Below are positions 20,430 through 51,145 of a stretch of 64,000 nt of DNA, piece after piece. How positions within the stretch are numbered: the first letter of the stretch is position 1; each line of letters starts with the position of its first letter. The position numbers and the translations under genes are program-made. Source of the DNA: Syntrophales bacterium (GTDB taxonomy: Bacteria; Desulfobacterota; Syntrophia; Syntrophales; PHBD01); NCBI GenBank assembly GCA_963668175.1, contig OY764159.1, positions 2,720,001 to 2,784,000 on the forward strand, given 5' to 3'. The notes under the pieces were generated by a model. It ran no database searches. It was given only the letters and a program-made list of their open reading frames with translations, and was not told where the DNA came from.

Positions 20430-20517
20430 GGGGGCTCCTTTCGCTTGGGTGGGGATGGACGACGTTACCTCCTGATAAGATTAGCGAGCCGGAAACAAAG
20501 AGACGATGTGAAATTAA

Positions 20518-21114: not shown

Positions 21115-21150
21115 ATGTTTATCAATACGCTAGATAATAAGAATATTAAT

Positions 21151-21351
21151 CTACTTATCACTTTGAGGAAAGTCTGGAACTCTGTGATGACCCGTTTCAT
21201 GTTCAGATGGTGAAGTGCCTGCTGGGGCTGGGGCTGGGGCTGTTCTTGCAGGTTCCGCCGGCTTTTGTTCTTCGGCTTTTTTGCAGCCGTTAATAGAAAT
21301 TATTGCGAGTAAAAACATTGTCGCCATTAATAACAGTATCAATTTTCTCAT
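21151..21351 (-). CDS. Small lipoprotein
   Basis: GGAGG RBS; MRKLILLL...INGC lipobox then Pro/Ala linker. Confidence 0.6.
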   Translation of the reverse strand: MRKLILLLMATMFLLAIISINGCKKAEEQKPAEPARTAPAPAPAGTSPSEHETGHHRVPDFPQSDK

Positions 21352-21511
21352 ATCAGTCTTTCCTCCATGAATGCTTTCATGAAACATTCAATTGCTAAGA
21401 TCAGGTAGACTAAGTTTGAAGTAGCCCCCAATTGAACCGGACACTTTGAATCTGGAAATAAGTTGTAGGAATAGATATAGAGATATTACTACAACCAGAA
21501 AGAAGGTGTTT

Positions 21512-21889
21512 ATGGTTCCTGTAGAAGTGATCGTCGGTGTACAGAGGCGACGTCGCTGGTCGGCTGCCGAGAAGAAGTCGATGGTGCGGGAGGCGGAGCA
21601 GCCGGGAATGAGCATCTCGGCTGTAGCCCGGAAGTATGACATCCATCCGAACCAGTTGTTCCACTGGCGCAGGCTTGCCGAAGAAGGGGCTCTGTCGGCG
21701 GTTGGTGCAGATGAAGGCGTCGTTCCTGCATCGGAAGCCAGAGAACTGAAAAAGCAGATCCGGGAGTTGGAGCGTCTTCTGGGCAAAAAGACAATGGAGG
21801 TGGAGATATTAAGGGAGGCTGTCCGGATTGCCCGTGAAAAAAAACTGATCTCGCGGTTGCCGTTGTTGCCGGAGGACGATTCCCGATGA
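21512..21889 (+). CDS. IS3-family transposase OrfA
   Basis: RRRRWSAAEKK...SAVARKYDIHPNQLFHWRR HTH; A8C slippery run at ~21837-21845 for a -1 frameshift. Confidence 0.92.
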   Translation: MVPVEVIVGVQRRRRWSAAEKKSMVREAEQPGMSISAVARKYDIHPNQLFHWRRLAEEGALSAVGADEGVVPASEARELKKQIRELERLLGKKTMEVEILREAVRIAREKKLISRLPLLPEDDSR

Positions 21890-22734
21890 AGACGGTTGTC
21901 GATACGCTGGACGTTTCCCGTTCCCGGCAGTACGAAAGGCAAGGGAAGGAAGCCGATTCGAGAAGCCGCCATTACAGGAGAGGCGACGATGGCAGATATC
22001 TTCTTCTGATCAGGCAGGTTATTGATAATCGTCCCAGTTACGGCTATCGGAGAGTAACGGCAAGAATCAACAAGCTTCTGGAACGTCAGGGGCATCCGGG
22101 AGTTAATCCCAAACGGATTTATCGTCTCATGAAGATGCACAATCTGCTTCTTCAGCGGCATACGGGTAGGCCGGCAAGGCTTCACGAGGGTAAGGTCACG
22201 ACGAGACGGAGCGATCTTCGTTGGTGTTCCGATGCGTTTGAGATTGCCTGCTGGAATGGGGACCGTCTCCGGGTAGCGTTCAGCATGGATTGTTGCGACA
22301 GGGAAATCATGAGTTATATAGCCACGACAGGGGGCGTATCCGGCGACATGGTCAGGGACTTGATGGCGGAAGCCATTGAGGCCCGTTTCGGTATGATCAA
22401 TCGGCTGCCTCACAGAATCCAGTGGCTGAGCGATAATGGTCCTGCGTACACCGCCAGGGAAACGAAAAGCTTTGGGCAGATGATGGGGCTTGAGGTTTGC
22501 ACGACCCCGTTCTATAGCCCGGAATCGAACGGAATGGCCGAATCCTTTGTCAAGACCTTCAAGAGGGATTATGTTCATCTGAATATCCTGACTGATGCCG
22601 AAACGGTCATGAAGCAACTGCCCGGATGGTTCGTAGACTACAATGAAAACCATCCGCACAAGGGATTGAAAATGATGTCGCCCAGGGAGTATAGGAGACA
22701 TCAAAATAAGTTAGAACAGTGTCCGGTGAAATAG
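21886..22734 (+). CDS. IS3-family transposase OrfB (DDE)
   Basis: YGYRRV, RWCSD, WLSDNG, SPESNGMAESFVKTFKRDY motifs. Confidence 0.95.
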   Translation: MKTVVDTLDVSRSRQYERQGKEADSRSRHYRRGDDGRYLLLIRQVIDNRPSYGYRRVTARINKLLERQGHPGVNPKRIYRLMKMHNLLLQRHTGRPARLHEGKVTTRRSDLRWCSDAFEIACWNGDRLRVAFSMDCCDREIMSYIATTGGVSGDMVRDLMAEAIEARFGMINRLPHRIQWLSDNGPAYTARETKSFGQMMGLEVCTTPFYSPESNGMAESFVKTFKRDYVHLNILTDAETVMKQLPGWFVDYNENHPHKGLKMMSPREYRRHQNKLEQCPVK

Positions 22735-22780
22735 GGGCAACTCCAAAGTTCAGTATGCCCATTATTTGAATAATAAATTA

Positions 22781-24424
22781 CTACCAAGCTGCGAGTTGAG
22801 TTATGGCTACATCAATAGTATTCGATCGAATCTTCAGAAAAGAATTATAGTCATCCTTTAGAGCTGCTTCAAACGCTTCTATTGAAATCAGATTTGAATC
22901 AAGCCATTGTTTAAGATTGTCTCCTGCTGCTCGTTGGACTTGCTTTAAGTAATCAGAGGGGGCTCTACTTGAAATTTGCTTATTACTTACTGAAGTAAGC
23001 ATGATGATATTTGCGAGAGAATTTGGAAGACCATCATCCATACCTTCGTTTTTTAAATAGTCCTGCGGAAAAAAATGGTGATATTCTTTTTGATTAGTCC
23101 ATGCCAGGGACTTACTAACATCAATGTGTTGGCCTGTTAGAATATCAATCGGCATATGATGAGCTAAAATTATTGCAAGGGTTTTCGCATGAGCACTGTC
23201 CGATCGAAAGGGTTTATTGATCCATATGGTGGAATTCGGTCTATATGCGGGTACAATGACTTCGTTTTCTGCACCTGTTGCGAATCTTGAAACTGCTTCT
23301 TTATCACGCGCCATGCTGCCTGTGTTCCATCCAGAGAAATATCCGCTCGAAGCTGTACGCCAAAACCACTTCCTGATTGCACTATATTGCGCGGCATTAG
23401 GTGTGGGGAGCAACCTAAATATCTCTGAGAGAACAACAACTTGATTGGCATAAGGTATGATTGCATCACTAGGAATTCTTATTTGTGTTGTTAAAAAGTC
23501 GATTGTTTTTTCATAAGCAGCTTGGCTGTTTGTTGTTGCTTCTTTTAATACATCGGCCGGGTGTTTGCGGAGGCTATTAATGCTTTCGACCGAAAATCCA
23601 CCTCCCGCAGCGGCGGACATCGTTCTGAGTATGACCTTGCGGTCAAGTCCTCCAAATGACTTGGCGTTTAGTGCTTTCAAAACACTATCGATCGAATCTA
23701 TTAGATCGAAGTTCTGACTCCAAGTTGCAGCGCGCATCAAATCTACAATTGTCAGACGTGTTCCTGTACTATTAATGCGTTCAAAAATCGGGGCCACATC
23801 CTGAATAGACATGTCACCAAGTGTGACAACAGCTACTTTGTAGTCTTTGAATCTATTAAAAAGTGCATCAGCGTTGGCTTTTAGCGTATCTTTGTCTGGT
23901 GCACTGAGCGAGTCTAGGGTTGCGTAGAATTTGTAAAATACGGCTCCGTCCGCAAGTTTATTCATCCGGACTTGATGCTGGGGGGGGTCATCAAGAGTAT
24001 CAAGATGCAAGAATTCACATTTACGAAGATCATATGCTATATTCCATACACTGTTTGGCTCTGTCCCATTCCAGTATAAAGCGCCGCAAATTGCGGAGAG
24101 GCGTTGTTGTCCATCAAGCAAATAATTTACAGGGTAATCGGGACGCGGCAAATCAATTTTCAAATCGGCGATACGATTTTCACTTCGCAACTCCTGTCTA
24201 CTCTGCCAAAGAAGAAGGCTCCCAATGGGATAATTCTGAGCAATCGAATCAAGCAGATCAAGTACTTGCTGTCGTTTCCATATAAAATCGCGCTGAAACT
24301 GTGGTAATAGAATATCGCCAGCTCGTACACGCCGCGCGAGTTCATCAATTCTATCCACGCTAGGTTGTGGATCTTTAGGCACAGGTGCAGTTGGGCCAGA
24401 CTTAGGATGAATATTTTCTGTCAC
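22781..24424 (-). CDS. GmrSD-like protein (DUF262 plus C-terminal HNH-like domain), putative type IV restriction/defence
   Basis: LPQFQRDFIW, YPIGSLLLW, LLDGQQRL, FERINSTG; C-terminal EYHHFFP...SLANIIML...NKQI. Confidence 0.85.
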   Translation of the reverse strand: MTENIHPKSGPTAPVPKDPQPSVDRIDELARRVRAGDILLPQFQRDFIWKRQQVLDLLDSIAQNYPIGSLLLWQSRQELRSENRIADLKIDLPRPDYPVNYLLDGQQRLSAICGALYWNGTEPNSVWNIAYDLRKCEFLHLDTLDDPPQHQVRMNKLADGAVFYKFYATLDSLSAPDKDTLKANADALFNRFKDYKVAVVTLGDMSIQDVAPIFERINSTGTRLTIVDLMRAATWSQNFDLIDSIDSVLKALNAKSFGGLDRKVILRTMSAAAGGGFSVESINSLRKHPADVLKEATTNSQAAYEKTIDFLTTQIRIPSDAIIPYANQVVVLSEIFRLLPTPNAAQYSAIRKWFWRTASSGYFSGWNTGSMARDKEAVSRFATGAENEVIVPAYRPNSTIWINKPFRSDSAHAKTLAIILAHHMPIDILTGQHIDVSKSLAWTNQKEYHHFFPQDYLKNEGMDDGLPNSLANIIMLTSVSNKQISSRAPSDYLKQVQRAAGDNLKQWLDSNLISIEAFEAALKDDYNSFLKIRSNTIDVAITQLAAW

Positions 24425-25324
24425 TAGTCACACTCCTTCTTCAAGTCGCAAAAGACGCAATATGACCTGTAACTAATTATGATCTTTCTTCTATTTGATC
24501 ATAATGGATAATATTTATGAAAACCGTGTATGAATAGTAATGTGTAATTGAAAACAGAATAGTCGTAAAATCACGTGTCATAGAATTCTGAACTTAAATC
24601 CTCCTTTTGTCAAGATAAATATCAGCAAAACCTATTCTAAATAGCTTAAGCTCCTTTAAAAAATACCGAATCGTCATCGGAATTTAGGGTACTCAACGCC
24701 GGGTGGATGGTTAATCAAAATCGAAGCAAAAGGGTGAGATGGCGCGGGCGTGAAGTTGGGATTTGCTTAATCAACGCCGTTTAGCTTAACCAACAGGCTT
24801 CCTTTGCTTATCCAAAGGTCCAACCAAAACGGAAGCAAATTTTAAAAATTTGGTTAACTTTTGCTTAAGCAGCGCTTCCAAAACCTTGTCAAGAGGCAAT
24901 GATATATCGTTTGCCGGCCTCTGCCGGCCCCACGCGGTCATCCTTGAAGGGTCGGAAAAAAGAGGGCATATAATGTTTTTAGGTTCAGGCAGGGCGAAAA
25001 AGAGGGACAAAGAGAGGGTAAGCAAGCGTAAGGCGTTAGGCGGTTATGGGGGAGGAAGGGTGAGAAGGCGAAGCGCACTGCTGAAAGGCTTCCGCAGGGT
25101 TTTGGTGATCCTTCCGTCTTCATGAATGATCAAAAAAACGCGCGCCCGATTTCAGCGAAAACCCCGCCACCCCCGAAAACGCATTTTTAACCGGATTTCT
25201 ACTTTTCCCCGACAAAATCGCTCCGCAAACCCTCCGCCGGGGAGGAAAAAAGTTTTGACTTTTTCGGACTCCCTCCGCCGTCTCGAAGATAAAAAATCCC
25301 CCCGCAGTATATATCGGGCTTTAT

Positions 25325-25516
25325 TTAATCGGCGCTATTCGGTATTTCTAATTTTCCTTTCTTTTTATTTGATATAAAATCACTCTTTTCTGTTGTTTCT
25401 AAATTGAGCGGGATCTGGTCCGTCCCTGCTTTTTTTTGCCATCCCCCTTTATTCCAATCGCCTTTATTCCAAGGTTGATCATTTGATCCGCCTGTTTTCT
25501 TATTCTTGGCAGCCAT
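25325..25516 (-). CDS. Small hypothetical protein (3' end may be affected by poor sequence)
   Basis: AGGAGG RBS, translationally coupled to the upstream lipoprotein; runs into a homopolymer-rich stretch. Confidence 0.4.
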   Translation of the reverse strand: MAAKNKKTGGSNDQPWNKGDWNKGGWQKKAGTDQIPLNLETTEKSDFISNKKKGKLEIPNSAD

Positions 25517-25530
25517 TAGACGGCACCTCC

Positions 25531-27261
25531 TTAAATGATTTTATTGATTGCCTCAATTTTTTTGAAGAAATCATCTATTTCTCTTGCGGCTTCTTTCACC
25601 TTTTTAGAATGGTCCTGCAATTTATTGTTCTCTGCCTCGCTTTTAGCCTGATATAAATTGTATTCCGCTGTCCATAACTTCTTTTCTGATTCTGTGCCGG
25701 TCTTTCTTGTATCTTTCATAAGCGCGACGTACTCTTGTTCAATTTTATCAATCTTTGCCTTTTCATTATCGGTTATCAAGGAATTACCTTCTGATATTAC
25801 TACATCGGCTTTTTCTATCAGGCCTTTCTTTTCCTTAGCAAGTTGTTCATTATTGCTTGGCATGGTTTTTGTGCTCAAATCGCTCTTTTTTTTCGCTAGA
25901 ATCTTTAGATCGTCACTCAGTAAATTATATGCCAGTTGGGGAAAAATTGCCTCTTTCATTTTAACGTCCTCTGCAATCTGGTGTTTTGCTAGATCGAGTT
26001 TTTTAGTCTCAATTTCAAGTGTTTTGAACTTTAGTGCGTATCGATTATCCTGTGCTTTCGAAATAAATTTCTCAAGGTTCATAACACAATGCTCGGAAAG
26101 TAAGGTCCCTTTGGTGTTGAGGCTGCTTGCCAGGAAGAAAGGGCGTGATTTTACTGCATCCACCCATTGACTCAAATCTTTCCTTTCGTTATTCAAGCCC
26201 TCTTTTTCCTTATCTTTCAAAGCTTGTTTTTTAAACTCTGAGATCTGATCGATCGAGAGATTTAAATAAGCTCTGTCTTCAGAAGATTGTAATTTCCAAC
26301 CACCAAGCTCGATTAAACATGCCGAAATATAGGCTTGTTCAATATCCTTTTCGATAAAAGTTTTATGCATTTCTCCTAATATCTTTGCAGTATCAGCATC
26401 ATGTTTTGGAGTAAGGCCGCCCATCGCTATTAGTTGGCTCACCTCAGAAGCCGATTTACTGGTTGTGTCAATTTGTACGCTCAATTTCTGTATGATAGCA
26501 TTCTTTTCTACGTTGGCTGCATCCAATTCTGCCTTCTTTGCATCGCGTTCAGCCTTTAATTGGTTTTTTTTTGGATCAGCATCAGTCGCGTCAGTATATG
26601 CTTTGTCAGCAGCTTTGTAGGCGTCATCTTTCTCTTTGACTTTTTGTTGTGCCGCGTCGAGCTCTGCTTTGGCCTTATCAATATCTTTCAGCATTTCGGG
26701 AAAGCCGACTAATTTAGCTTGAGCTTCAGCGTTCGCTTTTAATCCTATTGCCGCGCCTGTTCTACCGAAAGCTCCACCTGCAACCTCACCGAGGATTAGC
26801 GTTACCAGCAAATCGTCCAATCGGCTCGTTCGCAAGCTATACGTCGTACCGGTGATTGCTCCGTTGGCATAGTCTAGGCACGCCTGATATCCCTGATGCA
26901 GTAACGCTTGAATAGCCGTAGTCCGTTCAGCGAGTTGGGCTATAGCTTCAGCTTGACTGCCGGAAAGACTTGCGCTGCCGTAATTTAAAACGCTGATACC
27001 GAACCCGAATGAGCTTGCGAGTGCTGCTGCGACAATCGGGCCTGGTTCTGTACATGTAATTACGTTTGGATCAACTCTTCCGGGGCGTGATGCTATGCCG
27101 GGTTTCATATGTGTGATCATCCGAAGCCTGGCATCCGTTGCTATTCCTTGGCCGTCTTCCAAAACCTTCACTTCTTTCAGATCCCCTTTGGGAGCCGTGG
27201 CACAGCCGGAATGCAAGGCTATGAAAAAAATAATGCTAAAACCGATTTTCACTCTCCTCAT
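25531..27261 (-). CDS. Large coiled-coil lipoprotein, uncharacterised
   Basis: LHSGC lipobox; CTEPGP...QACLDYANGAI region; long Lys/Glu/Ala heptad stretches. Confidence 0.75.
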   Translation of the reverse strand: MRRVKIGFSIIFFIALHSGCATAPKGDLKEVKVLEDGQGIATDARLRMITHMKPGIASRPGRVDPNVITCTEPGPIVAAALASSFGFGISVLNYGSASLSGSQAEAIAQLAERTTAIQALLHQGYQACLDYANGAITGTTYSLRTSRLDDLLVTLILGEVAGGAFGRTGAAIGLKANAEAQAKLVGFPEMLKDIDKAKAELDAAQQKVKEKDDAYKAADKAYTDATDADPKKNQLKAERDAKKAELDAANVEKNAIIQKLSVQIDTTSKSASEVSQLIAMGGLTPKHDADTAKILGEMHKTFIEKDIEQAYISACLIELGGWKLQSSEDRAYLNLSIDQISEFKKQALKDKEKEGLNNERKDLSQWVDAVKSRPFFLASSLNTKGTLLSEHCVMNLEKFISKAQDNRYALKFKTLEIETKKLDLAKHQIAEDVKMKEAIFPQLAYNLLSDDLKILAKKKSDLSTKTMPSNNEQLAKEKKGLIEKADVVISEGNSLITDNEKAKIDKIEQEYVALMKDTRKTGTESEKKLWTAEYNLYQAKSEAENNKLQDHSKKVKEAAREIDDFFKKIEAINKII

Positions 27262-27795
27262 GGCACTTCCTCCCTTTATGAGATGGGTTTTGTAGGAGAT
27301 CGACGTTCGTAAATTCCTTCCCTTGATTATGATCTTTTAAAAAACACGAATTACTTGCGTATATATCTGCAACAAGATGGGATTTCGCAGTTACTTCATT
27401 TTTCTTACGAGCGAAGGGTTTATAAAGTCGGTTTATATATTGAAAAAAATTACAGGATCGGAATACGCATGCGAATAGAATAGGAAAGAGTCACGCAACA
27501 GAAGTGTTAAAGTTAATTTCATTCAAGCGTAAAATAACGAAATTGTCAAGATTAATATAGTTATATTAAGTTATCAATATGAGTATAACACCTCGTAATA
27601 TGTGCATTAGCCGCACATTATCACCCCTGTAGAGAATAAGATGAATTCCCTCTCGTAAAATCCCCTCTTATAAATCCCCCCCCCGAAAAAACTTTTTTTT
27701 GTCACCGCTTGAATGGCACCCCTTGAGCGGCACGCCTGATGGCACCCTACATGGCAGTTTGGCAGGCTTTTCCGGCATCTGCTAGCATTCCTCCC

Positions 27796-28239
27796 ATGGC
27801 AAGGAAAGCAACCGAAACAGCCCAGGCAAACGCCGACGACTTCAGGGCCCTGGCCTCGCAGAAGGGCCTCACGCCCGCGAAACTGATCGAGGAGCTTGCC
27901 GTCATCGCCACGGCGGACATCGCCGACTTCGTTACCGTAAGCGAGGACGGGGCTCTTCAGGCGAAACCCCTGACGGAATTGAAAGGCGCCAGCCGCGCCG
28001 TCCGAAAGATCAGGGAAAAAACCGTCATTACGGAAAAGGCCGACGGCTCCGTCCTCACGAAAACAAGCACGCTCGAATACGAGCTGCACCCGAAGCTGGA
28101 AGCCATCGACGCCGGTTTGAAGATTCACGGCATGAAGGCGCCGGAGAAGCGCGAGGTGAGCGCGGAGCTGAAAGCCGCCGCCGATCTCCCCCCGGCGATG
28201 AAGTCCGCCCTCGACGAAATCTACATCAAGGCATCATGA
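27796..28239 (+). CDS. Terminase small subunit
   Basis: LIEELAVIATADIADFV...ELHPKLEAIDAG; overlaps the TerL start. Confidence 0.8.
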   Translation: MARKATETAQANADDFRALASQKGLTPAKLIEELAVIATADIADFVTVSEDGALQAKPLTELKGASRAVRKIREKTVITEKADGSVLTKTSTLEYELHPKLEAIDAGLKIHGMKAPEKREVSAELKAAADLPPAMKSALDEIYIKAS

Positions 28240-40580: not shown

Positions 40581-41660
40581 ATGTCCAGTTTTCAGGGATT
40601 CTTAAAACAATCAACGGCGAAAAATGTCACCATCTTGATGATAGATTCGTCGGACCATATCACCGGCAAGACCGGCCTGACGCTGACGACTTACCTGTCG
40701 AAGGATTGCAACACCCCTGCCACCATTACGCCGACGGTGACGGAACTTGATGCCATGAACATGAAGGGGGTTTATAAGCTGGCCCTGACGGCCGCCCACA
40801 CGGATACATTAGGAGAATTCAAGCTCATGGTTTCGGCTACGGGAGCGGACCCTGTCGATTATAAATGGCAGGTCTGCTCGTACCTTCCCGGCGAAGCAGC
40901 AACCCTGCAATCGGACCAGGCTGTCAATGTGACGAAGATCGCGGGCGCGACGGTTGATGCTAACACAGCTCAGCTCGGTGTGAACGTCGTGAACTGGAAA
41001 GGTTCGGCGGCTCAGAACATGACAGGGGATGCCTATGCAAGGCTCGGCGCACCGGCGGGGGCGTCCCTCTCTGCCGATATTGCCGCCGTCAATGCAAAGA
41101 CAACGAACCTGCCGGCCTCGCCGGCGGCCGTCGGGTCCGCGATGACTCTGCAAGCCTCCGCAGTTCAGGCCGTCTGGGATGCTTTGACAAGTGCCTTCAC
41201 AACCAGTGGAAGTATAGGCAAACGGCTGTCCGACAATGTCGATGCCCAGATATCGACGAGATCCACCTTCGCCGGCGGCGCCGTATCGAGTGTCACGGGC
41301 AACGTCGGCGGGTCCGTGAACTCCGTTAATAGCCCTGTGACGGTAGGAACAAACAATGACAAGCTGAATTACGGCTTGTCTTCCGCAGCTGTCCAGGCAG
41401 TCTGGGACGCCCTTGCATCGGCCCTGACGACGGCAGGGAGCATCGGCAAGCGCATCGCCGATTACCTGACTGGCGACGCCTATGCGCGCCTCGGTGCGCC
41501 GTCGGGCGCATCCGTAGCGGCCGATATCGCGGCCGTCAAGACCCAGACGGACAAGATGACGTTCGACGCCTCCAACAGGATTGCTTCCAACACCAAGGCC
41601 GTCAACGACGCGACGCTCGCCGGAGCCGGCACTTCCGGGAGCCCCTGGGGGCCCGCATGA
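40581..41660 (+). CDS. Fibre-like virion protein with internal repeats
   Basis: TGDAYARLGAPxGASxxADIAAV twice and AVQAVWDAL...GSIGKR twice. Confidence 0.7.
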   Translation: MSSFQGFLKQSTAKNVTILMIDSSDHITGKTGLTLTTYLSKDCNTPATITPTVTELDAMNMKGVYKLALTAAHTDTLGEFKLMVSATGADPVDYKWQVCSYLPGEAATLQSDQAVNVTKIAGATVDANTAQLGVNVVNWKGSAAQNMTGDAYARLGAPAGASLSADIAAVNAKTTNLPASPAAVGSAMTLQASAVQAVWDALTSAFTTSGSIGKRLSDNVDAQISTRSTFAGGAVSSVTGNVGGSVNSVNSPVTVGTNNDKLNYGLSSAAVQAVWDALASALTTAGSIGKRIADYLTGDAYARLGAPSGASVAADIAAVKTQTDKMTFDASNRIASNTKAVNDATLAGAGTSGSPWGPA

Positions 41661-43256: not shown

Positions 43257-44948
43257 ATGCAGATCGTCATACCTGAAGAATTGACGGGATCGACGGAGTA
43301 TACGGCGGCTTCGCAGATGTCGAGATCCCTCTCCGCGATGGCGGACGTCTTCGCCAAGCAGTCGGCGCAGAGCGCCCAACGGAACCGGCAGCTGGACGAG
43401 ACCGTGGGGGTCATGCAGGACAGCAACAAAATCAACCAGACGTGTAACGATGCGGTCGCGCAATATAAGGGGATGACTTCCTATGAACGGGAACTGCGCG
43501 CGCAAAGCGGGTACGATCCGCTGGAAGACGACGCCAGACAGAAAATCGAGGAGGAGCGGGCAAAAATTACGAACCCGATCAGACTTGCTCTCTTCGATCG
43601 GGCGAGTCAAAGGGCCTTATATCAGGGGAGAGAAAAGGCCGATGCGATTATGACCGGCAAGATGAAGGTGGAGGCGCAGGGCGCATTAGACGCCTCTACG
43701 GAGTATCGGGTCGACTATACTCTTAACGGGTATCAAGAACCGAAAATCCCCTTATCCTCCGATCCCGATGCTCATCTTGAGGCCGTTGCCCGTGACAGAA
43801 GGCAATTCATGGCTAATCAGTATCGCGAACAACAGAGCTATCTGGCCGCAACCGTTGCTGGAGGGATGATCAACCAGGCCGAGGCCAAGGCACGCGACAC
43901 GTTGTTCCTAACGAACGTTGCATCGGGTCTTGCGGCCCAGGGGAGGATGACCGAAGCGGACGACTGGCTTGAAAGTAACCGTAACGCGATGACGCCGCAA
44001 AATTACGACCGTGCATACGCGAAACTTCGGCAGATACGCCAGGATGCGGACGTATCGAATCTCAAGGCGTATCTGAACGACCGTCATGTGATCAATCCGG
44101 TCGATCCCTATAATGCGGACGGAATGGAAACGTCGCCCCTGGAAAGAGCACAAGAAGCCGTTAAAGAGGCGACGTCGCCGGGTTTCGCCGAAGGGTACGG
44201 CCCCGATACGGTGAAGCGTGTGCAAGCAGCCGTGATCGGCCAATACGCCGAGCAGCGCGATCAATATAGGAACAAGCTCCCCGAAGTCCTGGGCGGGTTG
44301 TTGTCGGACGTCATGAACCGCAAGATCACCTCGGAGCAGCTGATGAACGATCATAACTTTCGGTACCTGAATTATCCTGAAAAGACTAATGTCCGCAATT
44401 TTACCGAGGCCGTCCAAAGGGCGGACGCTGCGGAAGCCGTCCAAGAAGGATCTCTGAATATGAAAGAGCGCCAGGAGATCTGGCGGAAGCAACAGAAGGA
44501 TGCGGTGAATAAAGCGGGGGAAATCAGGACCAACATTGCGCGCGGCCTCTATGCGAACCCGGCGGAAATGTTGCCCGAGTATTCCCGGTCGGACAATCCG
44601 CTCATTCTGAAACAATACCCCCAGGCGATGGCGGAATACAAACTTATTCAAGGCAATCGCGATTTGAAGGCGAATCTCGAACGCATCGCAACTGCGGCCG
44701 ACCAGGGCGTGCTCCATGCCGACGGGCCCGATCAAAACATGGCGGCGAGAGGATCGCTGCAGGACGATCTCATGGATATGTATAAGTCCGACAATACATT
44801 CCGCGGCGACAAAATGGAAAAGTGGGTCAAAGAGAAAATTCAGGAGATGGTGAAAAAGGCCGTGGGACAGTTGCTGGACAGGCAATTCCCCCTGATACCG
44901 GTTGTGAAAGCGTCCGAGGAACAGGGCGGCATAAAAGGCGGCGTGTAA
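43257..44948 (+). CDS. Internal virion/ejection protein (gp15-like)
   Basis: 563-aa helical protein; synteny. Confidence 0.6.
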   Translation: MQIVIPEELTGSTEYTAASQMSRSLSAMADVFAKQSAQSAQRNRQLDETVGVMQDSNKINQTCNDAVAQYKGMTSYERELRAQSGYDPLEDDARQKIEEERAKITNPIRLALFDRASQRALYQGREKADAIMTGKMKVEAQGALDASTEYRVDYTLNGYQEPKIPLSSDPDAHLEAVARDRRQFMANQYREQQSYLAATVAGGMINQAEAKARDTLFLTNVASGLAAQGRMTEADDWLESNRNAMTPQNYDRAYAKLRQIRQDADVSNLKAYLNDRHVINPVDPYNADGMETSPLERAQEAVKEATSPGFAEGYGPDTVKRVQAAVIGQYAEQRDQYRNKLPEVLGGLLSDVMNRKITSEQLMNDHNFRYLNYPEKTNVRNFTEAVQRADAAEAVQEGSLNMKERQEIWRKQQKDAVNKAGEIRTNIARGLYANPAEMLPEYSRSDNPLILKQYPQAMAEYKLIQGNRDLKANLERIATAADQGVLHADGPDQNMAARGSLQDDLMDMYKSDNTFRGDKMEKWVKEKIQEMVKKAVGQLLDRQFPLIPVVKASEEQGGIKGGV

Positions 44949-44975
44949 GCATCCTGCGGTTTTTACCGCGCCGCA

Positions 44976-46700
44976 TTGCATGGTCGTACGGATGGCGCAC
45001 AGGAACAAGGCATGGAATCGGCCAATGGCGGACAGGTGAATGAGATGGCATACGAAAGCGAAACAGGATCGATCCCGGAGAGTGCCGACGGATACATGCC
45101 GACGGGACCGCATGACAACCTGAAATATGCTCCTGCGGTTTTTTACACAGAGCCGGGAAAAGACGGTCGGAATGAACCCTCGGGGACCGATGCGTTAACC
45201 GCCTGGTTAAGAAACGCCGTATTTATCCATGGTGTCGATGACAAAATGGAAGAAGTCGCGATGCAAAACGCCGTCGCCTGGTCCAGAATGCTCAACATTC
45301 CCGCCTCCGTCGCCTATGAGTATGGACCGGATATATCGAAGATGATCCGGAGTCGGGCGGATTCAAACAACTTCGTCACGGATTCGGGTATTGCCGACCC
45401 TCGGATCGTTATGGAGGACGAAAGGAAGAAAGACGAAACCGGCCGGTTCTACGGCATGGACGGGATGAATGCGGCCGACGCGATCGCCGGCGGATCGCCT
45501 CCGCAACAACCGGAAGGCAGGAATCCGTTCCGGAATATCTATGAGGCCAAGCGAAGGTCCCGTGCGGAATTGACCTACGAAGAACTTCAGGCGCGCCTGG
45601 CCTCCGACTGGATGCGTGAGGGAATGAGCAAGGAAGCCGCGATGGCCGAGGCATACGGCCATACGTCGGCGCAGACGGAAGCCTACGACCCGTTCACATT
45701 GTTTGCCGGGGGATTGGGCGCAGGCTATCGCCTGGGAAACACGGCGGCGAGCGTGGGCGAGCGGCTGTTCAGGGCGGGCGTGCAGTCGGCCGTCATGACG
45801 GCGGCGGATATCCCGATCAGCGGGATGATCACCCCCGCCATCGAGGAGAAGTATCCCGGCCTGGCCCTTCCGGCGAATCTCATCCTCAGCGTCATATCGG
45901 GCATCTCCATCGAGAAGGGCGCGGAGAAAGGCCTGATCAAGCTACTCGAAAGCAAAGGCATTAAAAACGCCGGGGCGGCAGCCGCGGAGATAAAAGCGGG
46001 TCTTGCCGAAAAGGCCGGAAGCGGGGAATTGGGGACGATGCTCGACAAGGCCATCGAGGCACGCGGCGGTGCGGCGGATAAGATCAGACCGCCGGCAACC
46101 GATATGAATGCGGCCGGTCCCGCCGAAGGCGTCAAGGCGGAAGGGGTGACGAGCAAACCAATTAATGGTTCATTTGTCAAAACAGAGAATCTACCAAAGA
46201 ACACGATCGTTGGAGACGAAAAAGCGATTGGCGCTTTGGTTGACTTCACCCTCGAAGATAAGACGAATGTGAAACGTGCGGTGCGATTTCAAACTGTGAC
46301 GCCTGAAGAGGCGGCAAGTCTCAAAGAACGGACAAGTCTCGAATTGGAAGGATATCATCACACGATAGATAATTATGGGATCAAGCACGTGCTGGAGCAA
46401 CATGGCGATCTGATTTCAGAGGGGCATCGTGGCCAATTGCCGATTGAAAGGAGCGATATCCAGATGATTCCGGAGATTGTCAATAACTATGATTCTGTGA
46501 AGTTGATTCCAAAAGGATCGAAAGGCGATGCTAGTCCTGCATTAGACCTTATAAGATACGAAAAAAGGATTGATGGATCCGTCTATTATGTCGAGGAGAT
46601 TAGGACCGGCCGGAATGAACTGACAACAAAATCCTTATGGAAGACGCGCGCCGCGAAAGATTCCAAGCCTGATGGCTCGAACCCTTTCTCTACGCCCTAA
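44976..46700 (+). CDS. Internal virion (gp16-slot) protein with C-terminal PBECR3-like nuclease domain (NucA)
   Basis: C-terminus HTIDNYGIKHVLEQHG...GQLPIERSDIQMIPEIVNNYD...YEKRIDGSVYYVEEIRTGRNELTTKSLWK resembles PBECR3; true start may be 45012 or 45045. Confidence 0.72.
   Translation: MHGRTDGAQEQGMESANGGQVNEMAYESETGSIPESADGYMPTGPHDNLKYAPAVFYTEPGKDGRNEPSGTDALTAWLRNAVFIHGVDDKMEEVAMQNAVAWSRMLNIPASVAYEYGPDISKMIRSRADSNNFVTDSGIADPRIVMEDERKKDETGRFYGMDGMNAADAIAGGSPPQQPEGRNPFRNIYEAKRRSRAELTYEELQARLASDWMREGMSKEAAMAEAYGHTSAQTEAYDPFTLFAGGLGAGYRLGNTAASVGERLFRAGVQSAVMTAADIPISGMITPAIEEKYPGLALPANLILSVISGISIEKGAEKGLIKLLESKGIKNAGAAAAEIKAGLAEKAGSGELGTMLDKAIEARGGAADKIRPPATDMNAAGPAEGVKAEGVTSKPINGSFVKTENLPKNTIVGDEKAIGALVDFTLEDKTNVKRAVRFQTVTPEEAASLKERTSLELEGYHHTIDNYGIKHVLEQHGDLISEGHRGQLPIERSDIQMIPEIVNNYDSVKLIPKGSKGDASPALDLIRYEKRIDGSVYYVEEIRTGRNELTTKSLWKTRAAKDSKPDGSNPFSTP
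45565..46142 (+). repeat. 578-bp direct repeat, copy 1 (shared core)
   Basis: Matches 47300-47877 at offset 1735; about 11 mismatches counted by eye. Confidence 0.95.
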
Positions 46701-46728
46701 ACGACGGACGGCAATCCCCATAAGGACG
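46628..46728 (-). ncRNA. Predicted structured small RNA type A, copy 1 (antisense to the NucA 3' end)
   Basis: Begins just after a perfect promoter; closed by a UCCUUAUGG/CCAUAAGGA stem then UUUU; ~93% identical to 48901-48997. Confidence 0.62.
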
Positions 46729-46733
46729 TAATT

Positions 46734-46762
46734 ATTATATCTCCTGCCGTCAAAGATGTCAA
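46734..46762 (-). promoter_or_regulatory. Perfect consensus sigma70 promoter
   Basis: TTGACA (46762-46757)-N17-TATAAT (46739-46734). Confidence 0.85.
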
Positions 46763-46809
46763 GGAGAATGGAGCCGAAGTGAATGAAAATAAGGATTAAA
46801 TTGTGGACT

Positions 46810-46925
46810 ACCAGGCCGCTGTGACACGGCGCCGTGATTGGGGTGGCTGTAAAAGAAAAAAGCGAAGAAGGCAAAGTGTTCCGAACCGTTTACGATTGGG
46901 GCGATGTGAGTAGGAAAGTGAAGAG
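46810..46925 (+). pseudogene. Decayed remnant of the NucB 3' end
   Basis: VAVKEKSEEGKVFRTVYDWGDVSRKVK versus VVVKETKQEGKVFRTVYDWSDVSDKVK in 47062-48495. Confidence 0.8.
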
Positions 46926-47001
46926 AACCCCCCCGCTGGTTCATCTTCCAGCCAACCGGTTTATGGGGTGGGCGGGGCACCCTGGGGTTTCCCGATTGAC
47001 T
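46910..47001 (-). ncRNA. Predicted small RNA type B, orphan copy
   Basis: About 94% identical (5 differences in 84 nt) to 48494-48577; lies downstream of promoter 47008-47036. Confidence 0.55.
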
Positions 47002-47007
47002 GACGAT

Positions 47008-47036
47008 ATTTTACACGAATAATTCGGTGATGTCAA
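47008..47036 (-). promoter_or_regulatory. Near-consensus sigma70 promoter
   Basis: TTGACA (47036-47031)-N17-TAAAAT (47013-47008). Confidence 0.8.
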
Positions 47037-47061
47037 GTGATATTAGACGGTTATACGTTAT

Positions 47062-48495
47062 GTGACGACAGATGTGATCCAAGAGAATTTTACGACGGCA
47101 CTGCAAAAAATCCGGCAATCGTGCGAATCGATGCCTAATCACGGAAATAAAAGTATGACCGTGTCAGCCGTAAACCATCTGATGAGATATAATGGCGCCT
47201 CCGTCCCGGGGCTGATCGCCGGCGGATCGTACCCGCCGCAACCACTGGAAGGCAACAATCCGTACCGTAATATCTATGAGGCAAACCGAAGACCCCTGTC
47301 GGAATTGACCTACGAAGAACTTCAGGCGCGCCTGGCCTCCGACTGGATGCGTGAGGGAATGAGCAAGGAAGCCGCGATGGCCGAGGCATACGGCCATACG
47401 TCGGCGCAGACGGAAGCCTACGACCCGTTCACATTGTTTGCCGGGGGATTGGGCGCAGGCTATCGCCTGGGAAATACGGCAGCGAGCGTAGGCGAGCGGC
47501 TGTTCAGGGCGGGCGTGCAGTCGGCCGTCATGACGGCGGCGGATATCCCGATCAGCGGGATGATCACCCCCGCCATCGAGGAGAAGTATCCCGGCCTGGC
47601 CCTTCCGGCGAATCTCATCCTCAGCGTCATATCGGGCGTCTCCATCGAGAAGGGCGCGGAGAAAGGCCTGATCAAGCTACTCGAAAGCAAAGGCATTAAA
47701 AACGCCGGGGCGGCAGCCGCGGAGATAAAAGCGGGTCTTGCCGAAAAGGCCGGAAGCGGGGAATTAGGACCGACGCTCGACAAGGCCATCGAGGCACGCG
47801 GCGGTGCGGGGGAGAAGATCAAACCGCCGGCAACCGATATGAATGCGGCCGGTCCCGCCGAAGGCGTCAAGGCGGAAAGTCAACTCGGCGACAGTGCCGC
47901 ATCTGCCGTGGAGAAAGAAGAAGCCGCCGCGGCCAATGCGTGGGCTGTGGAAAGATCGCCTTCGATCTCCACCGAGAAAATCGACGGCGTCAACGTCATC
48001 CAGAGCAGCAAAGAGAGCAGAATCGGCAGGGCCTACGATATTGTCATGCAATACCTGCCCCGTCCCGTAAAAAATCTCTTCGACGCGAAAACGACGGATG
48101 TCGAAACGGCCATAGAAAAAGGCGAAAAATTCTACCGAGGGGAATTGATGAACGCTCCCGTGAAAGCACCCGCCTTCGACGGCGATAATGTGAATTTCAC
48201 GATGAGTGGATTCCTGCATGTTTCGGCTCAGGATGGACGTGTATTGAAAACGGAAGATATTACAAGACGGATTAACCTTTTGCCGAAAGCGAAGGAGGTT
48301 CTGACAAATACGCCTTGCGTTGATGAAATGAGAATATGGCCCAATGGAGATAGAACATATGGGTTGCTCGGCCGCTTTGATGACGGCTCCGTAATCAGGG
48401 TTGTCGTAAAGGAGACAAAGCAAGAGGGCAAGGTATTCCGAACAGTTTACGATTGGAGCGACGTGAGCGACAAAGTGAAGAAATCAGGAATATGA
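47062..48495 (+). CDS. N-truncated paralog with an alternative C-terminal LPD3/BECR-like nuclease domain (NucB)
   Basis: Shares a 192-codon core with 44976-46700, then VKAPAFDGDNVNFTMSGFLHV...RRINLLPKAKEVL...IRVVVKETKQEGKVFRTVYDW; start uncertain. Confidence 0.68.
   Translation: MTTDVIQENFTTALQKIRQSCESMPNHGNKSMTVSAVNHLMRYNGASVPGLIAGGSYPPQPLEGNNPYRNIYEANRRPLSELTYEELQARLASDWMREGMSKEAAMAEAYGHTSAQTEAYDPFTLFAGGLGAGYRLGNTAASVGERLFRAGVQSAVMTAADIPISGMITPAIEEKYPGLALPANLILSVISGVSIEKGAEKGLIKLLESKGIKNAGAAAAEIKAGLAEKAGSGELGPTLDKAIEARGGAGEKIKPPATDMNAAGPAEGVKAESQLGDSAASAVEKEEAAAANAWAVERSPSISTEKIDGVNVIQSSKESRIGRAYDIVMQYLPRPVKNLFDAKTTDVETAIEKGEKFYRGELMNAPVKAPAFDGDNVNFTMSGFLHVSAQDGRVLKTEDITRRINLLPKAKEVLTNTPCVDEMRIWPNGDRTYGLLGRFDDGSVIRVVVKETKQEGKVFRTVYDWSDVSDKVKKSGI
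47300..47877 (+). repeat. 578-bp direct repeat, copy 2 (shared core)
   Basis: Matches 45565-46142. Confidence 0.95.
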
Positions 48496-48575
48496 AGAGA
48501 ACCCCCCCGCTGGTTCATCTTCGAGCCAACCGGTTCATGGGGTGGGCGGGGCACCCTAGGGGATCCCGATTGACT
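48481..48575 (-). ncRNA. Predicted small RNA type B, cognate copy convergent on NucB
   Basis: Closing stem AAUCGGGA/UCCUGAUU and internal CCCCGC/GCGGGG; lies downstream of promoter 48582-48610. Confidence 0.6.
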
Positions 48576-48581
48576 GATTAT

Positions 48582-48610
48582 ATTTTACACGAATAATTCG
48601 GAGATGTCAA
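48582..48610 (-). promoter_or_regulatory. Near-consensus sigma70 promoter
   Basis: TTGACA (48610-48605)-N17-TAAAAT (48587-48582). Confidence 0.8.
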
Positions 48611-48635
48611 GTGATATTCGATGGTTATACGTTAT

Positions 48636-48970
48636 ATGACGATGGATGCGATTCAAAAGATTTTGATGATGGCACTGCAAGAAATCAAGGAAAATAAAAC
48701 ATGACCGTATCGGCCGTAAATCATCCGATGAAATGCAACGGCAACGCCGTTCCGTGGCCGATCGCCGGCGGAACGTTTCTGCCGGAGCGGGAAGGCGGGA
48801 ACAGCCCGGTACTCGACCTCATCTCGAAAGAAAGAAGGATTGATGGATCTGTCTATCGCATCGAAAAAGTGAGGGCAGGACGGAACGATCTGATAAAAAA
48901 TCCTTATGGAGGCCGCGCGCCGCGTAAGATTCCAAGCCTGATGGCTAGAACCCTTTCTCGACGCCCGAAG
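48636..48970 (+). pseudogene. Deleted third cassette: decayed N-terminus of the NucB-type gene fused to the decayed NucA 3' end
   Basis: MTVSAVNH...IAGG matches 47155-47230; SPVLDLISKERRIDGSVYRIEKVRAGRNDL matches NucA SPALDLIRYEKRIDGSVYYVEEIRTGRNEL, then frameshifts. Confidence 0.8.
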
Positions 48971-48997
48971 CGACGGACGGCAATCCCCATAAGGACG
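48895..48997 (-). ncRNA. Predicted structured small RNA type A, orphan copy
   Basis: Same closing stem followed by U6; 7 differences in 97 nt from copy 1. Confidence 0.6.
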
Positions 48998-49002
48998 ATC
49001 AT

Positions 49003-49031
49003 ATGGTATCGCCTGCAATAAACGGTGTCAA
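49003..49031 (-). promoter_or_regulatory. Sigma70-like promoter
   Basis: TTGACA (49031-49026)-N17-TACCAT (49008-49003). Confidence 0.7.
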
Positions 49032-49102
49032 GCCGAAGGGACCCTGCCCGCGTCGCAGGACGACGCAAAAAATAGATTAGAACGATACGAACAGGAGAGT
49101 AA

Positions 49103-51145
49103 ATGACAGTAGAGACCACAGACAATCGCATTTCCCATGTCGGCGACGGATCGACGATCCAGTTCGCCTTTCCCTTCGGCATTTTCGGCACGGACGATAT
49201 CGTCGTCTATCTGGCAACGGCGGGAGGTTCGAAGGTTCTGCAACAAAGGGGCGTCGACTACGACGTAACCCTTACGAACCCGGACGACCTGCCGTCGCCC
49301 GGCGTGATCACGTTCTGCCAGCTACCGGCGCCTGTGCCGCCGACTCCGCAACAGACCGTGAAGATCGTAAGGACGCTCCCCTACACGCAGGAGATCGAAA
49401 TCACGAACGGCGGGCCGATGCCGGCCGCATCCCTGAACGAAGCCTTCGACCGGGCCGTGATCCTCATGCAGCAGCTCCAGGACCAGCTACGCCAGGCGAC
49501 CATGTCGCTGGGCGAGATCGTGGCTTCGGACTTCTTCAAGCTCCTGGCGGTTTCCGGTAATGCAACGGCCGCAAGGGCGCTCCTTCAAGCCCAGCAACTG
49601 AACAATAACCTGACGGCCCTCTCGGGCCTAAGCGGCGCGGCGAACCTGCTTCCGTACTTCACCGGGACGGGAACGATGACGACGACTCCCCTGTCGTCCT
49701 TCGCCCGTGGCCTTCTTGACGACCAAAGCCCCGCGGCAGCCAGAACAACCCTTCAAGTCGACAATTCCGGAGGCGTGACCTGGAAGCAGCTCGCGTCCGG
49801 GACGGATTTTCAGACGACCTGCCCCACGGCCTCGACCATTACGATGAGCAGCGACCAGACGGCAAACATCAAATTCGGGACGCTCATCAAAGTCAAGATA
49901 AGCGGCGGGTATTATGTGGGCCAGTGCGTGACATGCACGGCCGTTCTCCTCACGGTGTCGGGGGTGGCCCTCAGCACGGGGAGCAACGCTCTACAGGAAC
50001 TCTACTACACGTCGTTTTCGGACATGGAGAGGGACATCCAGCAGGTCACGAAAAGATATTACGCGGCCGACGGTTCCGGGGTCGACACCGTAACGGCGAC
50101 ATTGGACCCGCCTCCTCCGGCCCTGGTGGACAAGATGCATTGCCGGATCGTGGCGGCCGGTAAGAATACGGGGGCGATGACATTCGAGCCCAACGCCCTT
50201 GGGCGGAAAGACATTGTCAAGCTGAACAATGTTCCGATGGCGGAGGGCGACATACCCGGCCAGTATTTCGTCATGGACCTGCAATACAGTTCCGCCCTGG
50301 ATAAATGGGTCATCCTGAACGCCGGCGTTCCCAATGGCGTGATCTCCCAGTCGAAACTTAAGACATCAAGTGAGACTGCCGGTACATTGTCCATCATTTC
50401 GGGCGGCACGGTTGAAAGTAGCTATACGCTGCCGGGGGGCGAGTATGGGTTCATGCCATCGTTTCGTTGTTGGACGAATGAATCCGGGAGATGGCCGGTG
50501 AATTTATATTCGGGGCTTCTTCAGGATTATGACGGCTACACTCTCGGAAATACAAACAAGAACGTGATATACATGAAATTCACCGGCGGTACGATTGCGG
50601 GAACGAGCTGGTTCCAGTGCAACCAAAGATATGTGACGTCCTCCGGCGAAGTTCCCTGGTTCTTTGCCCTTCGCGACAAAACAACAAAGTTCGTCAAGGC
50701 GGCAGTCTTTTCGCTCGATCATCCATGCTTCGGCAACGGCGGCAAGCCTGCTCTCGTTCCTCATCCCTTCCAGACGCCGAAAGACGACGAGGAAATTATC
50801 GTCGTTCACCCGACACCCGAGCAAATAGCTGCGGCGGAGGATTACTCCGTCCGGGGCGATGACGAAGCGGACTATTCTGTGTTGAGATCCCTCCTTGAAT
50901 TGTACGATATTGACGAAGACTCCAAACCGTCCTGGCCGGATGTTCCCGTCACCGTAGGCATCACAAAAGTATTGAGTCCGCAGGGGCGCATGGTCAAGGC
51001 CAATGCGGATAATTTAAAGGCGGTCCCCGAAAACACTCCTATCGAGGTTATAAAGAAGGTCATCCCGCAGACTGAAGGTTTGATCTGCAGGGCCTTCAAG
51101 GCGAAGGAAACGAAAACCGCCAAGGAGGACGCCGTCCATGGATGA
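49103..51145 (+). CDS. Tail fibre protein (T7 gp17-like N-terminal anchor)
   Basis: GDGSTIQFAFPF...IVRTLPYTQ...LNEAFDRAVILMQQL; LSGLSGAANLLPYFTG fibre motif. Confidence 0.88.
   Translation: MTVETTDNRISHVGDGSTIQFAFPFGIFGTDDIVVYLATAGGSKVLQQRGVDYDVTLTNPDDLPSPGVITFCQLPAPVPPTPQQTVKIVRTLPYTQEIEITNGGPMPAASLNEAFDRAVILMQQLQDQLRQATMSLGEIVASDFFKLLAVSGNATAARALLQAQQLNNNLTALSGLSGAANLLPYFTGTGTMTTTPLSSFARGLLDDQSPAAARTTLQVDNSGGVTWKQLASGTDFQTTCPTASTITMSSDQTANIKFGTLIKVKISGGYYVGQCVTCTAVLLTVSGVALSTGSNALQELYYTSFSDMERDIQQVTKRYYAADGSGVDTVTATLDPPPPALVDKMHCRIVAAGKNTGAMTFEPNALGRKDIVKLNNVPMAEGDIPGQYFVMDLQYSSALDKWVILNAGVPNGVISQSKLKTSSETAGTLSIISGGTVESSYTLPGGEYGFMPSFRCWTNESGRWPVNLYSGLLQDYDGYTLGNTNKNVIYMKFTGGTIAGTSWFQCNQRYVTSSGEVPWFFALRDKTTKFVKAAVFSLDHPCFGNGGKPALVPHPFQTPKDDEEIIVVHPTPEQIAAAEDYSVRGDDEADYSVLRSLLELYDIDEDSKPSWPDVPVTVGITKVLSPQGRMVKANADNLKAVPENTPIEVIKKVIPQTEGLICRAFKAKETKTAKEDAVHG

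Follow-up and report, generated by a model that had tools for sequence, protein, structure and literature searches.

Two tandem genes with a near-identical core and unrelated C-terminal tips: probable effector carriers before the tail fibre of a T7-like prophage

Introduction

Why would a phage keep two adjacent genes that are nearly identical in their middle part and unrelated at their C-termini? The question is raised by positions 44976 to 48495 of a 64,000-nucleotide (nt) stretch of a Syntrophales bacterium genome (contig OY764159.1; the whole stretch is called the window below), in which two such genes, here gene A and gene B, lie just ahead of a tail fibre gene. The original prediction saw in them a polymorphic-toxin-like cassette switch occupying the place of an injected virion protein. 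Overall, our analysis indicates that they are probably two co-expressed, recombining effector carriers in the pre-fibre slot of a T7/HTVC010P-like prophage. Within this answer, packaging, ejection, the expression of gene B, enzymatic activity and ongoing recombination are what we infer from the sequence. The parts of the two genes are as follows.

44976..46700, + strand: gene A, 574 amino acids (aa) from TTG, comprising N-terminal extension, core and PBECR3 tip (from the list of open reading frames, ORFs)
44976..45481, + strand: N-terminal extension of gene A, about 169 aa, missing from gene B
45482..46142, + strand: core copy A of the direct repeat; core-family profile positions 71-231, E 2.4e-27
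46119..46142, + strand: junction motif PAEGVKAE, at which identity ends
46143..46700, + strand: tip A, a linker plus a PBECR3 predicted RNase domain (Pfam aa 443-563, nt 46302-46664)
47062..48495, + strand: gene B, 477 aa from GTG 47062, more likely 446 aa from ATG 47155, comprising leader, core and LPD3-like tip
47214..47877, + strand: core copy B of the direct repeat; core-family profile positions 40-242, E 4.7e-28
47878..48495, + strand: tip B, a linker of about 29 aa plus an LPD3-like alpha/beta domain (from homologues and predicted fold)

Results

A direct repeat that ends at the tip boundary

We searched region 44001-49500 against itself with blastn and then aligned the repeat copies base by base. 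Segments 45482-46142 and 47214-47877 matched at 95.8% over 664 columns with a single 3-nt gap (E = 0). The inner block 45565-46142 / 47300-47877, at an offset of 1735, contained 11 mismatches in 578 nt. Its identity of 98.1% bears out the 578-base-pair (bp) repeat of about 98% that had been estimated by eye, and at its 5' end the repeat is 83 nt longer than the original prediction stated. Identity in this 5' extension was about 80% (14 mismatches and the 3-nt indel), and the two mismatch counts, 14 in 83 nt vs 11 in 578 nt, gave a Fisher p of 1.2e-7. Perfect runs of 175, 147 and 127 bp make up much of the inner block; 12 codons differ there, 5 of the 12 synonymously, and none of the three perfect runs holds a synonymous change. 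Outside the repeat, identity in 30-nt blocks was 17-47% before 45482 and 23-37% after 46142/47877. The break comes exactly after PAEGVKAE (gene A aa 382-389, nt 46119-46142), so that the abrupt end claimed for this motif is reproduced by the base-by-base alignment, and gene B does lack the first ~169 aa of gene A, close to the ~170 first reported.

The identity gradient and the absence of synonymous change from the perfect blocks point to recent common ancestry rather than protein-level selection. A recent tract of gene conversion that stops at the tip boundary would account for this pattern better than selection acting on the protein. The codon phase is equal in both copies, so a crossover anywhere in the repeat would yield an in-frame fusion of 389 + 205 aa.

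Base composition changes at the same boundary. The G+C content is 0.632 in core A, 0.623 in core B and 0.629 in the structural module, against 0.461 in tip A and 0.502 in tip B; at third codon positions (GC3) the tips have 0.481 (A) and 0.566 (B) and the cores 0.75 (A) and 0.73 (B). This composition agrees with tips that may have been imported.

The junction is kept among relatives with three kinds of tip

Homologues were taken from a search of 5.8 billion proteins, and phages were compared by tblastn against 50,697 phage records. A HMMER search with P0006, a metagenomic protein of 628 aa, gave 73 hits: 2 were the window itself, 37 matched tip B, 32 the core and 2 the N-terminal extension. In P0006 a long, diverged N-terminus precedes a core with 86% identity to that of gene A, and tip B follows; P0006 and gene B are 79% identical over 426 residues of core and tip, without disruption. 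The second relative, P0027 (625 aa, 27% identical overall), consists of the N-terminal extension, the core, PAEGIKAK and a third tip, for which Pfam gave no match. The third, P0079 (639 aa), begins with the leader of gene B, continues with a different, shorter middle region ending in SAEGVKAK, carries a tip A 80% identical to the window's, and then runs on for about 300 further residues.

The junction AEG[VI]KA[EK] is therefore kept in all five proteins (gene A, gene B, P0006, P0027 and P0079), and three tip types follow it: PBECR3, LPD3-like and the P0027 tip. The expectation of a constant core with variable tips among relatives was thus confirmed. VENN and DPxGL are the junction motifs of contact-dependent inhibition (CDI)/Rhs-type systems, and the window's junction is unrelated to them. 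A four-protein alignment compared with 185,579 species genomes gave 436 pattern matches, 0 of them confirmed.

The N-terminal extension of gene A showed distant homology to the N-termini of P0006 and P0027, and its Pfam search returned no match. Besides TTG, gene A has candidate starts at ATG 45012 and ATG 45045, and the library protein P0004 is the 562-aa form from ATG 45012. As a separate observation, residues 137-197 of P0006 matched 16 stretches of P0017 (4271 aa) and 8 of P0048 (2884 aa). Both of these giant proteins have eukaryote-type Pfam hits, and the matches are probably compositional.

Tip A is a predicted RNase domain of a truncated protein

The first C-terminus had been called PBECR3-like, and Pfam supports this clearly: tip A matched positions 5-114 of the 115 in PBECR3 (PF18812) with E 1.2e-19, its 70.8 bits exceeding the gathering cut-off of 30. 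Candidate active-site residues are a Lys-His pair (GIKHV) and a Thr/Ser near the C-terminus; the placement of the His and Ser/Thr residues in PBECR3 follows a preprint (bioRxiv 10.64898/2026.08.28.747851). In the tip-A search P0079 was the sole non-self relative, and among the phage records gene A was matched through PBECR3 only, in 5 records.

The TAA of gene A lies opposite Glu337 of P0079, and the alignment with P0079 continues in one frame for 25 residues past the stop.

46701..46775, + strand: former coding sequence past the gene A TAA (P0079 alignment), repeated at 49022-49044

Since P0079 reads on where gene A stops and the similarity persists 25 residues downstream, gene A appears to be a truncated form of a longer protein that is truly polyvalent.

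Tip B is LPD3-like through its homologues and predicted fold

For the second C-terminus, predicted to be LPD3-like, the assignment holds through homologues and predicted fold rather than through its own Pfam score. Tip B alone scored 13.8 bits against LPD3 (PF18798; E 0.07), below the 27-bit cut-off, and whole gene B had no Pfam hit at E<=0.01. Among its homologues LPD3 was matched by 5 of 37 at E<=0.001, and two of these (P0016, 31.0 bits; P0068, 33.3 bits) score above the cut-off where they align with tip B. In the tip-B alignment A2, which has 21 members, 20 besides tip B itself, 4 matched LPD3 at E<=0.01. Most of the homologues lie inside proteins of 1000-3300 aa that also carry ddrB-ParB, InPase, MuF_C, LPD1, PBECR1, LPD22, LPD29 or helicase domains. 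An AlphaFold model built on the same alignment was confident (predicted local distance difference test, pLDDT, 90.7; predicted template modelling score, pTM, 0.84). Compared with BFVD it gave 6 matches at E<=0.001, of which ranks 4 and 5 are named LPD3.

A BECR relationship of tip B is only hinted at by these comparisons. DUF4258 (4e-4) and PBECR2 (7.7e-3) matched weakly, each in 1 of the 21 members of A2. The model found no PDB entry at E<=0.001 with Foldseek, 6cp9 (CdiA-CT) reaching E 0.08 and BrnT 3u97 E 0.32, so the BECR/nuclease fold expected for this C-terminus did not emerge from structural or profile comparison. The name NucB, or any nuclease family, was also rejected for tip B: Pfam gave no such match, the PDB search by sequence returned nothing below E 0.5 and the one by fold nothing at E<=0.001, and Iyer et al. 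2017 (PMC5512222) list LPD3 among domains of unknown function. Tip B had no match in the 50,697 phage records.

We also considered tips A and B as distant homologues of each other. MAFFT aligns a G-x-x-H and a DGSV motif between them, but comparison of the tip-B profile with tip A by hhalign gave a probability of 0.5% and E 0.11, and the candidate was dropped.

The core matches the N-terminal domain of a protein family in the slot before the tail fibre

Two genes bound the pair.

43257..44948, + strand: upstream gene in the gp15 position, 563 aa, labelled by position alone
49103..51145, + strand: tail fibre gene bounding the slot; 17 PHROG tail/fibre families, best phrog_1640, 3.1e-17

The phage module of the window runs in the order terminase, portal (PF12236), capsid (PF19821), tail tube B (phrog_376), GNAT-type internal virion protein, three more genes, fibre and amidase. 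Its tail tube B is closest to that of HTVC010P-type pelagiphages, in which the pre-fibre gene is annotated as an internal virion protein. The upstream 563-aa protein had no Pfam or PHROG hit and no tblastn hit in the phage records, and it found itself alone in the 5.8-billion-protein search; its earlier description as gp15-like is thus one of position, with no sequence relative behind it.

A core-family profile of 1110 positions was built from 7 family members (the P0020 family). In the window it matched gene B and gene A alone, and the shared part is the N-terminal domain (positions 40-242 of 1110). In the 32 core hits the core occupies roughly aa 40-250, and most of the proteins are 900-1900 aa long; 4 of the 32 carry ART-PolyVal, Zeta_toxin, Kinase-PolyVal or LPD38 above cut-off. 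A genome scan with seven core-bearing proteins yielded 70 loci, which were screened with a hidden Markov model (HMM) of the core. Locus L003 has the order tail tube B (phrog_376), internal virion protein, two small genes and a 1611-aa core-bearing phrog_6651 internal virion protein, and in locus L004 a phrog_1640 fibre, the same fibre family as in the window, directly follows the core-bearing protein. Synteny in these two loci and in phage HTVC024P upholds the proposal that the pair sits where T7-like phages encode gp16. By profile and gene order, the core is the putative N-terminal domain of a protein in the T7 gp16 position, here carrying a small tip alone.

The core contains a hydrophobic helix (Kyte-Doolittle maximum 1.64 at aa 294-312). 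A protein-atlas search with it returned unnamed viral clusters as the best match (0.91), with PT-TG (0.87) and Phage_P22_gp16 (0.83) as leads. In a further group of loci (L011-L070, mostly Sphingomonadales), the family body (profile positions ~308-1085) occurs in about 60 alphaproteobacterial genomes behind 400-1000 N-terminal residues that lack the core. Body and core are therefore separate modules.

Several of our results weigh against reading the two genes as a recombining pair of injected carriers. The core was found in 3 of the 70 related loci, none of the 3 has a second core and none of the 70 has tip B, hence no recurrence of tandem arrays was seen; L004 and L005, two of the three core-bearing loci, are interrupted by contig ends. 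The proteins of genes A and B match no PHROG family, and their link to internal virion proteins rests on profiles built here. The large conserved family body is missing from the window, so the short proteins may behave unlike their large relatives. The structural model of the core is poor (pLDDT 61.3, pTM 0.32). The ribosome-binding site of gene B is weak and GGAA-type, while most neighbouring genes have GGAGG-like sites. Finally, the high core identity may also come from a very recent duplication and not from conversion.

Two intact and two broken cassettes

The self-comparison revealed two further, more diverged repeats. The first, J1 (46814-47238) vs J2 (48370-48784), is 74.8% identical over 444 columns and contains the last ~35 codons of the tip-B domain, the inter-cassette stretch and the leader that begins gene B. 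The second, 46560-46775 vs 48830-49044, is 81.0% identical over 216 columns and corresponds to the end of tip A plus the 75 nt past the gene A stop. They mark two remnants, and a promoter-like site lies within J1.

46814..47000, + strand: displaced tip-B tail, remnant B' (P0006 tblastn, tip-B HMM; start of J1)
48701..49044, + strand: remnant cassette 3, with leader', first core residues, an internal deletion and a decayed tip-A tail, A' (ORF 48701-49021, P0079 alignment)
46996..47023, + strand: promoter-like site upstream of gene B, TTGACT-16-AATAAT, 10/12; same hexamers at 48570-48597

For B', residues 593-626 of P0006 matched 46828-46929 by tblastn with 82% identity, and the tip-B HMM matched ORF 46825-47019 with E 1.3e-10. 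In cassette 3, P0079 matched 48701-48763, 48791-48892 and 48871-49041 in two frames, with a frameshift and two stops. On these alignments the locus is a four-cassette array in the order A, B', B, A', two of them dead. No immunity gene follows either tip: the ORFs found there (46834-47022 and 48701-49021) are remnants, and no other + strand ORF of at least 60 aa is present.

The 165-nt inter-cassette stretch, which includes the promoter-like site, is conserved at ~93% between J1 and J2, vs 77-80% in the flanking coding parts.

Gene B as a probable independent gene

The original prediction treated gene B as an orphan C-terminal module, a view that our results do not favour. Gene B has a leader of 20 aa (from ATG 47155, the 446-aa form seen in the library protein P0005) or 51 aa (from GTG 47062). 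The ATG 47155 and its leader recur as the start of P0079, an independent protein of 639 aa, and again at 48701. A short leader followed by the core, as in gene B, is the usual N-terminal layout among the large family relatives, and the frame of 477 codons is intact beside broken remnants. The shared start and leader, the usual layout, the conserved inter-cassette stretch and the intact frame together speak for gene B as an independent gene and not a start-less orphan.

It is nevertheless worth weighing the view that gene B is a silent, N-truncated orphan kept in reserve and that the 1735-bp deletion puts tip B in place of tip A on the injected protein, in the manner of Rhs/CdiA orphans. We consider this unlikely. 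The long, near-perfect repeat with its in-frame fusion would suit it, as would the weak ribosome-binding site, the existence of the product's architecture in P0006 and the displaced tip remnants downstream, which are a feature of Rhs/CdiA loci (PMC3150448). The start that gene B shares with P0079, the normality of its layout in large relatives and an inter-cassette stretch conserved above its coding flanks are, however, difficult to reconcile with a silent reserve. Immunity genes are absent after the tips, the deletion is irreversible, and the N-terminus of P0006 is strongly diverged from that of gene A, so that P0006 is no simple deletion derivative.

A rather improbable account is that the locus is a decaying relic, the debris of past inter-phage recombination, in which gene B or both genes are dispensable and the repeat has no selected role. 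A 477-codon frame kept beside frameshifted remnants, the 79% identity of gene B to P0006 over 426 residues without disruption, the confident predicted fold of tip B and the score of tip A far above its Pfam cut-off all speak against it, even though two of the four cassettes are already broken, gene A itself is truncated at a stop where P0079 reads on, and the lineage is rare (the core search recovered 3 proteins, of which 2 are the window's own). That an assembler laid two alleles of a mixed population in tandem is hardly credible: assemblers can duplicate near-identical blocks such as these of 578 bp, but allele collapse does not explain the unique flanks, the 75-81% secondary repeats and the broken remnants, the cores differ at 11 positions and in a diverged 83-nt 5' part, the locus lies within a contig of 4,567,304 bp, and the leader-type gene start exists independently in P0079.

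Discussion

A proposed mechanism for two recombining carriers

Two co-expressed, recombining carriers would work as follows. The slot would hold an array of short effector carriers, each made of an ejection-protein N-terminal domain, AEG[VI]KA[EK] and a module from the polyvalent repertoire. Both genes would be made late, and their products packed into the capsid via the shared core and ejected with the DNA, which would bring two payloads into the newly infected cell: the predicted PBECR3 RNase of gene A and the LPD3 module of gene B. Recent gene conversion between the cores would have kept 578 bp near-identical, and earlier events may have left the displaced tip-B tail and the gutted leader/tip-A cassette. 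A 1735-bp in-frame deletion between the cores would remove tip A and leave N-terminal extension, core and tip B; recombination between J1 and J2 (1556 bp) would instead remove gene B; and the core homology would permit tip exchange with co-infecting related phages. In this sense the locus suggests that phages may swap the payloads of injected proteins by recombination.

The 1735-bp deletion switch is itself plausible. The claim that one crossover would delete 1735 bp and fuse the second tip to the full N-terminus stands in two respects, the fusion being in frame and its architecture being displayed by P0006, and falls as a reversible switch, the deletion being one-way. Similarly, the comparison with polymorphic toxins is sustained by the core, the junction, the unrelated low-G+C tips and the displaced remnants, and fails at the immunity gene, absent after either tip.

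A broader interpretation, which we put forward tentatively as a possibility, is that podoviruses have their own polymorphic effector system. In it, the N-terminal domain of the pre-fibre ejection protein would serve as a general delivery module and AEG[VI]KA[EK] as a recombination or processing junction, and gene-converted tandem cassettes would change the injected enzyme by deletion, duplication and exchange, as a phage counterpart of Rhs/CdiA tip switching. Such a system would need no immunity genes, since its target is the newly infected cell.

Proteins that a phage injects act ahead of any phage gene expression and are therefore prime candidates for roles in early counter-defence and in the takeover of the host. 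If the core is a portable delivery domain with a fixed junction, it offers a handle for finding injected effectors in podovirus genomes, and a natural scaffold showing which payloads are able to pass the tail. The locus is a testable case of virion-effector diversification, with two live and two dead cassettes, a probable conversion tract and relatives bearing the same tips on other carriers.

Comparison with known systems

Three kinds of system already described are polyvalent proteins, the polymorphic toxins of the MuF type and the orphan modules of Rhs/CdiA loci. Polyvalent proteins have 2-15 disparate domains and were proposed to be injected early-phase effectors, and mosaic shuffling of PBECR and LPD3 domains was noted in Helicobacter jhp1044 (Iyer et al. 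2017, PMC5512222). The window shares with them the PBECR3/LPD3 repertoire and the location among virion genes, here a podovirus structural module. By contrast, the window proteins bear one recognisable payload on a carrier (P0079 is longer, with ~300 residues past tip A), and the window adds a tandem array, a long near-identical repeat, a fixed junction and displaced remnants. The terms "ejection protein" and "internal virion protein" do not occur in the text of that paper.

The MuF toxins likewise combine a virion-associated N-terminal domain with a variable C-terminal toxin, and among 191 genes for such toxins 89.4% have a small ORF downstream (Jamet et al. 2017, PMC5576092). PBECR3 itself also ends portal/MuF-region genes in Burkholderia phages, according to the phage records. 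Unlike in these toxins, the carrier in the window is the N-terminal domain of a pre-fibre protein and not MuF, and its tips have no immunity-like ORF downstream. "Orphan", "recombination" and "tandem" are absent from the paper by Jamet et al.

As in Rhs and CdiA, the window has a constant region, a sharply bounded polymorphic tip and downstream alternative tips or fragments with core homology, and its alternative tip (B) occurs on a full-length protein elsewhere (P0006), as CDI orphans do (Poole et al. 2011, PMC3150448). The window differs in lacking immunity genes, in a second copy with its own start, and in delivery, which would be by virion ejection and not by a type V or type VI secretion system.

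According to a review (PMC8954989), gp16 homologues have membrane-spanning elements and ejection proteins are modular. The pair resembles T7/P22 gp16 in being the last internal-virion position before the fibre, and the hydrophobic helix of the core is in line with such elements. It departs from gp16 in that the window proteins have no sequence or Pfam match to it and no transglycosylase domain, are much shorter (446-574 aa) and are two in number. A literature search, with most subscription journals outside it, did not find described the combination of a gp16-position N-domain carrier, a fixed junction, a tandem array with a probable conversion tract and remnants, and no immunity genes; its novelty is thus provisional.

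Minor features of the locus and the window

Two small elements were seen next to the cassettes.

46734..46762, - strand: perfect sigma-70 consensus TTGACA-17-TATAAT, 12/12, a candidate promoter just past the gene A stop, antisense into tip A
48636..48704, + strand: 22-codon upstream ORF with its TGA overlapping ATG 48701 (ATGA), from the J1/J2 alignment

The antisense consensus could drive an antisense RNA; a 10/12 copy of it lies at 49003-49031 on the - strand, in the second tail-A repeat. Promoter-like sites were frequent overall, with 13 in the 10-kb region vs 4.8 +/- 2.1 expected, 6 of them inside repeats. A search for known RNAs (Rfam) in 44500-49500 gave a chance snoRNA match only (E 0.84). 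The 22-codon ORF may be a translational-coupling leader. Its J1 counterpart (47062-47154) carries 28 nt that J2 lacks and reads in frame into gene B, with GTG 47062 as the start.

Runs of seven C occur in both J copies (46925-46935 and 48499-48509). A one-base shift at the run would produce a Pro/Gly/Ser-rich tail ending like the short proteins P0028 and P0041, and the run could be a sequencing error in a homopolymer, a genuine frameshift or a slippery site. P0028 (74 aa) and P0041 (73 aa), which come from other sources, consist of the tip-B tail and linker alone and resemble the remnant at 46834-47022; they are possibly orphan fragments from other genomes, or else pieces cut by the end of a contig.

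Elsewhere in the window, an ORF of 359 aa (40581-41660, + strand), located after tail tube B and before the GNAT gene, contains an internal duplication, with two copies each of the segments GDAYARLGAP...ADIAAV and AVQAVWDAL...GSIGKR, and matched neither Pfam nor PHROG. Positions 20000-28000, immediately upstream of the terminase genes, form a low-G+C island (0.42-0.47 vs 0.55-0.64 around it), which encodes a protein with a GmrSD-type restriction endonuclease N-terminal domain (22781-24424, - strand) and may be prophage defence cargo or a separate island.

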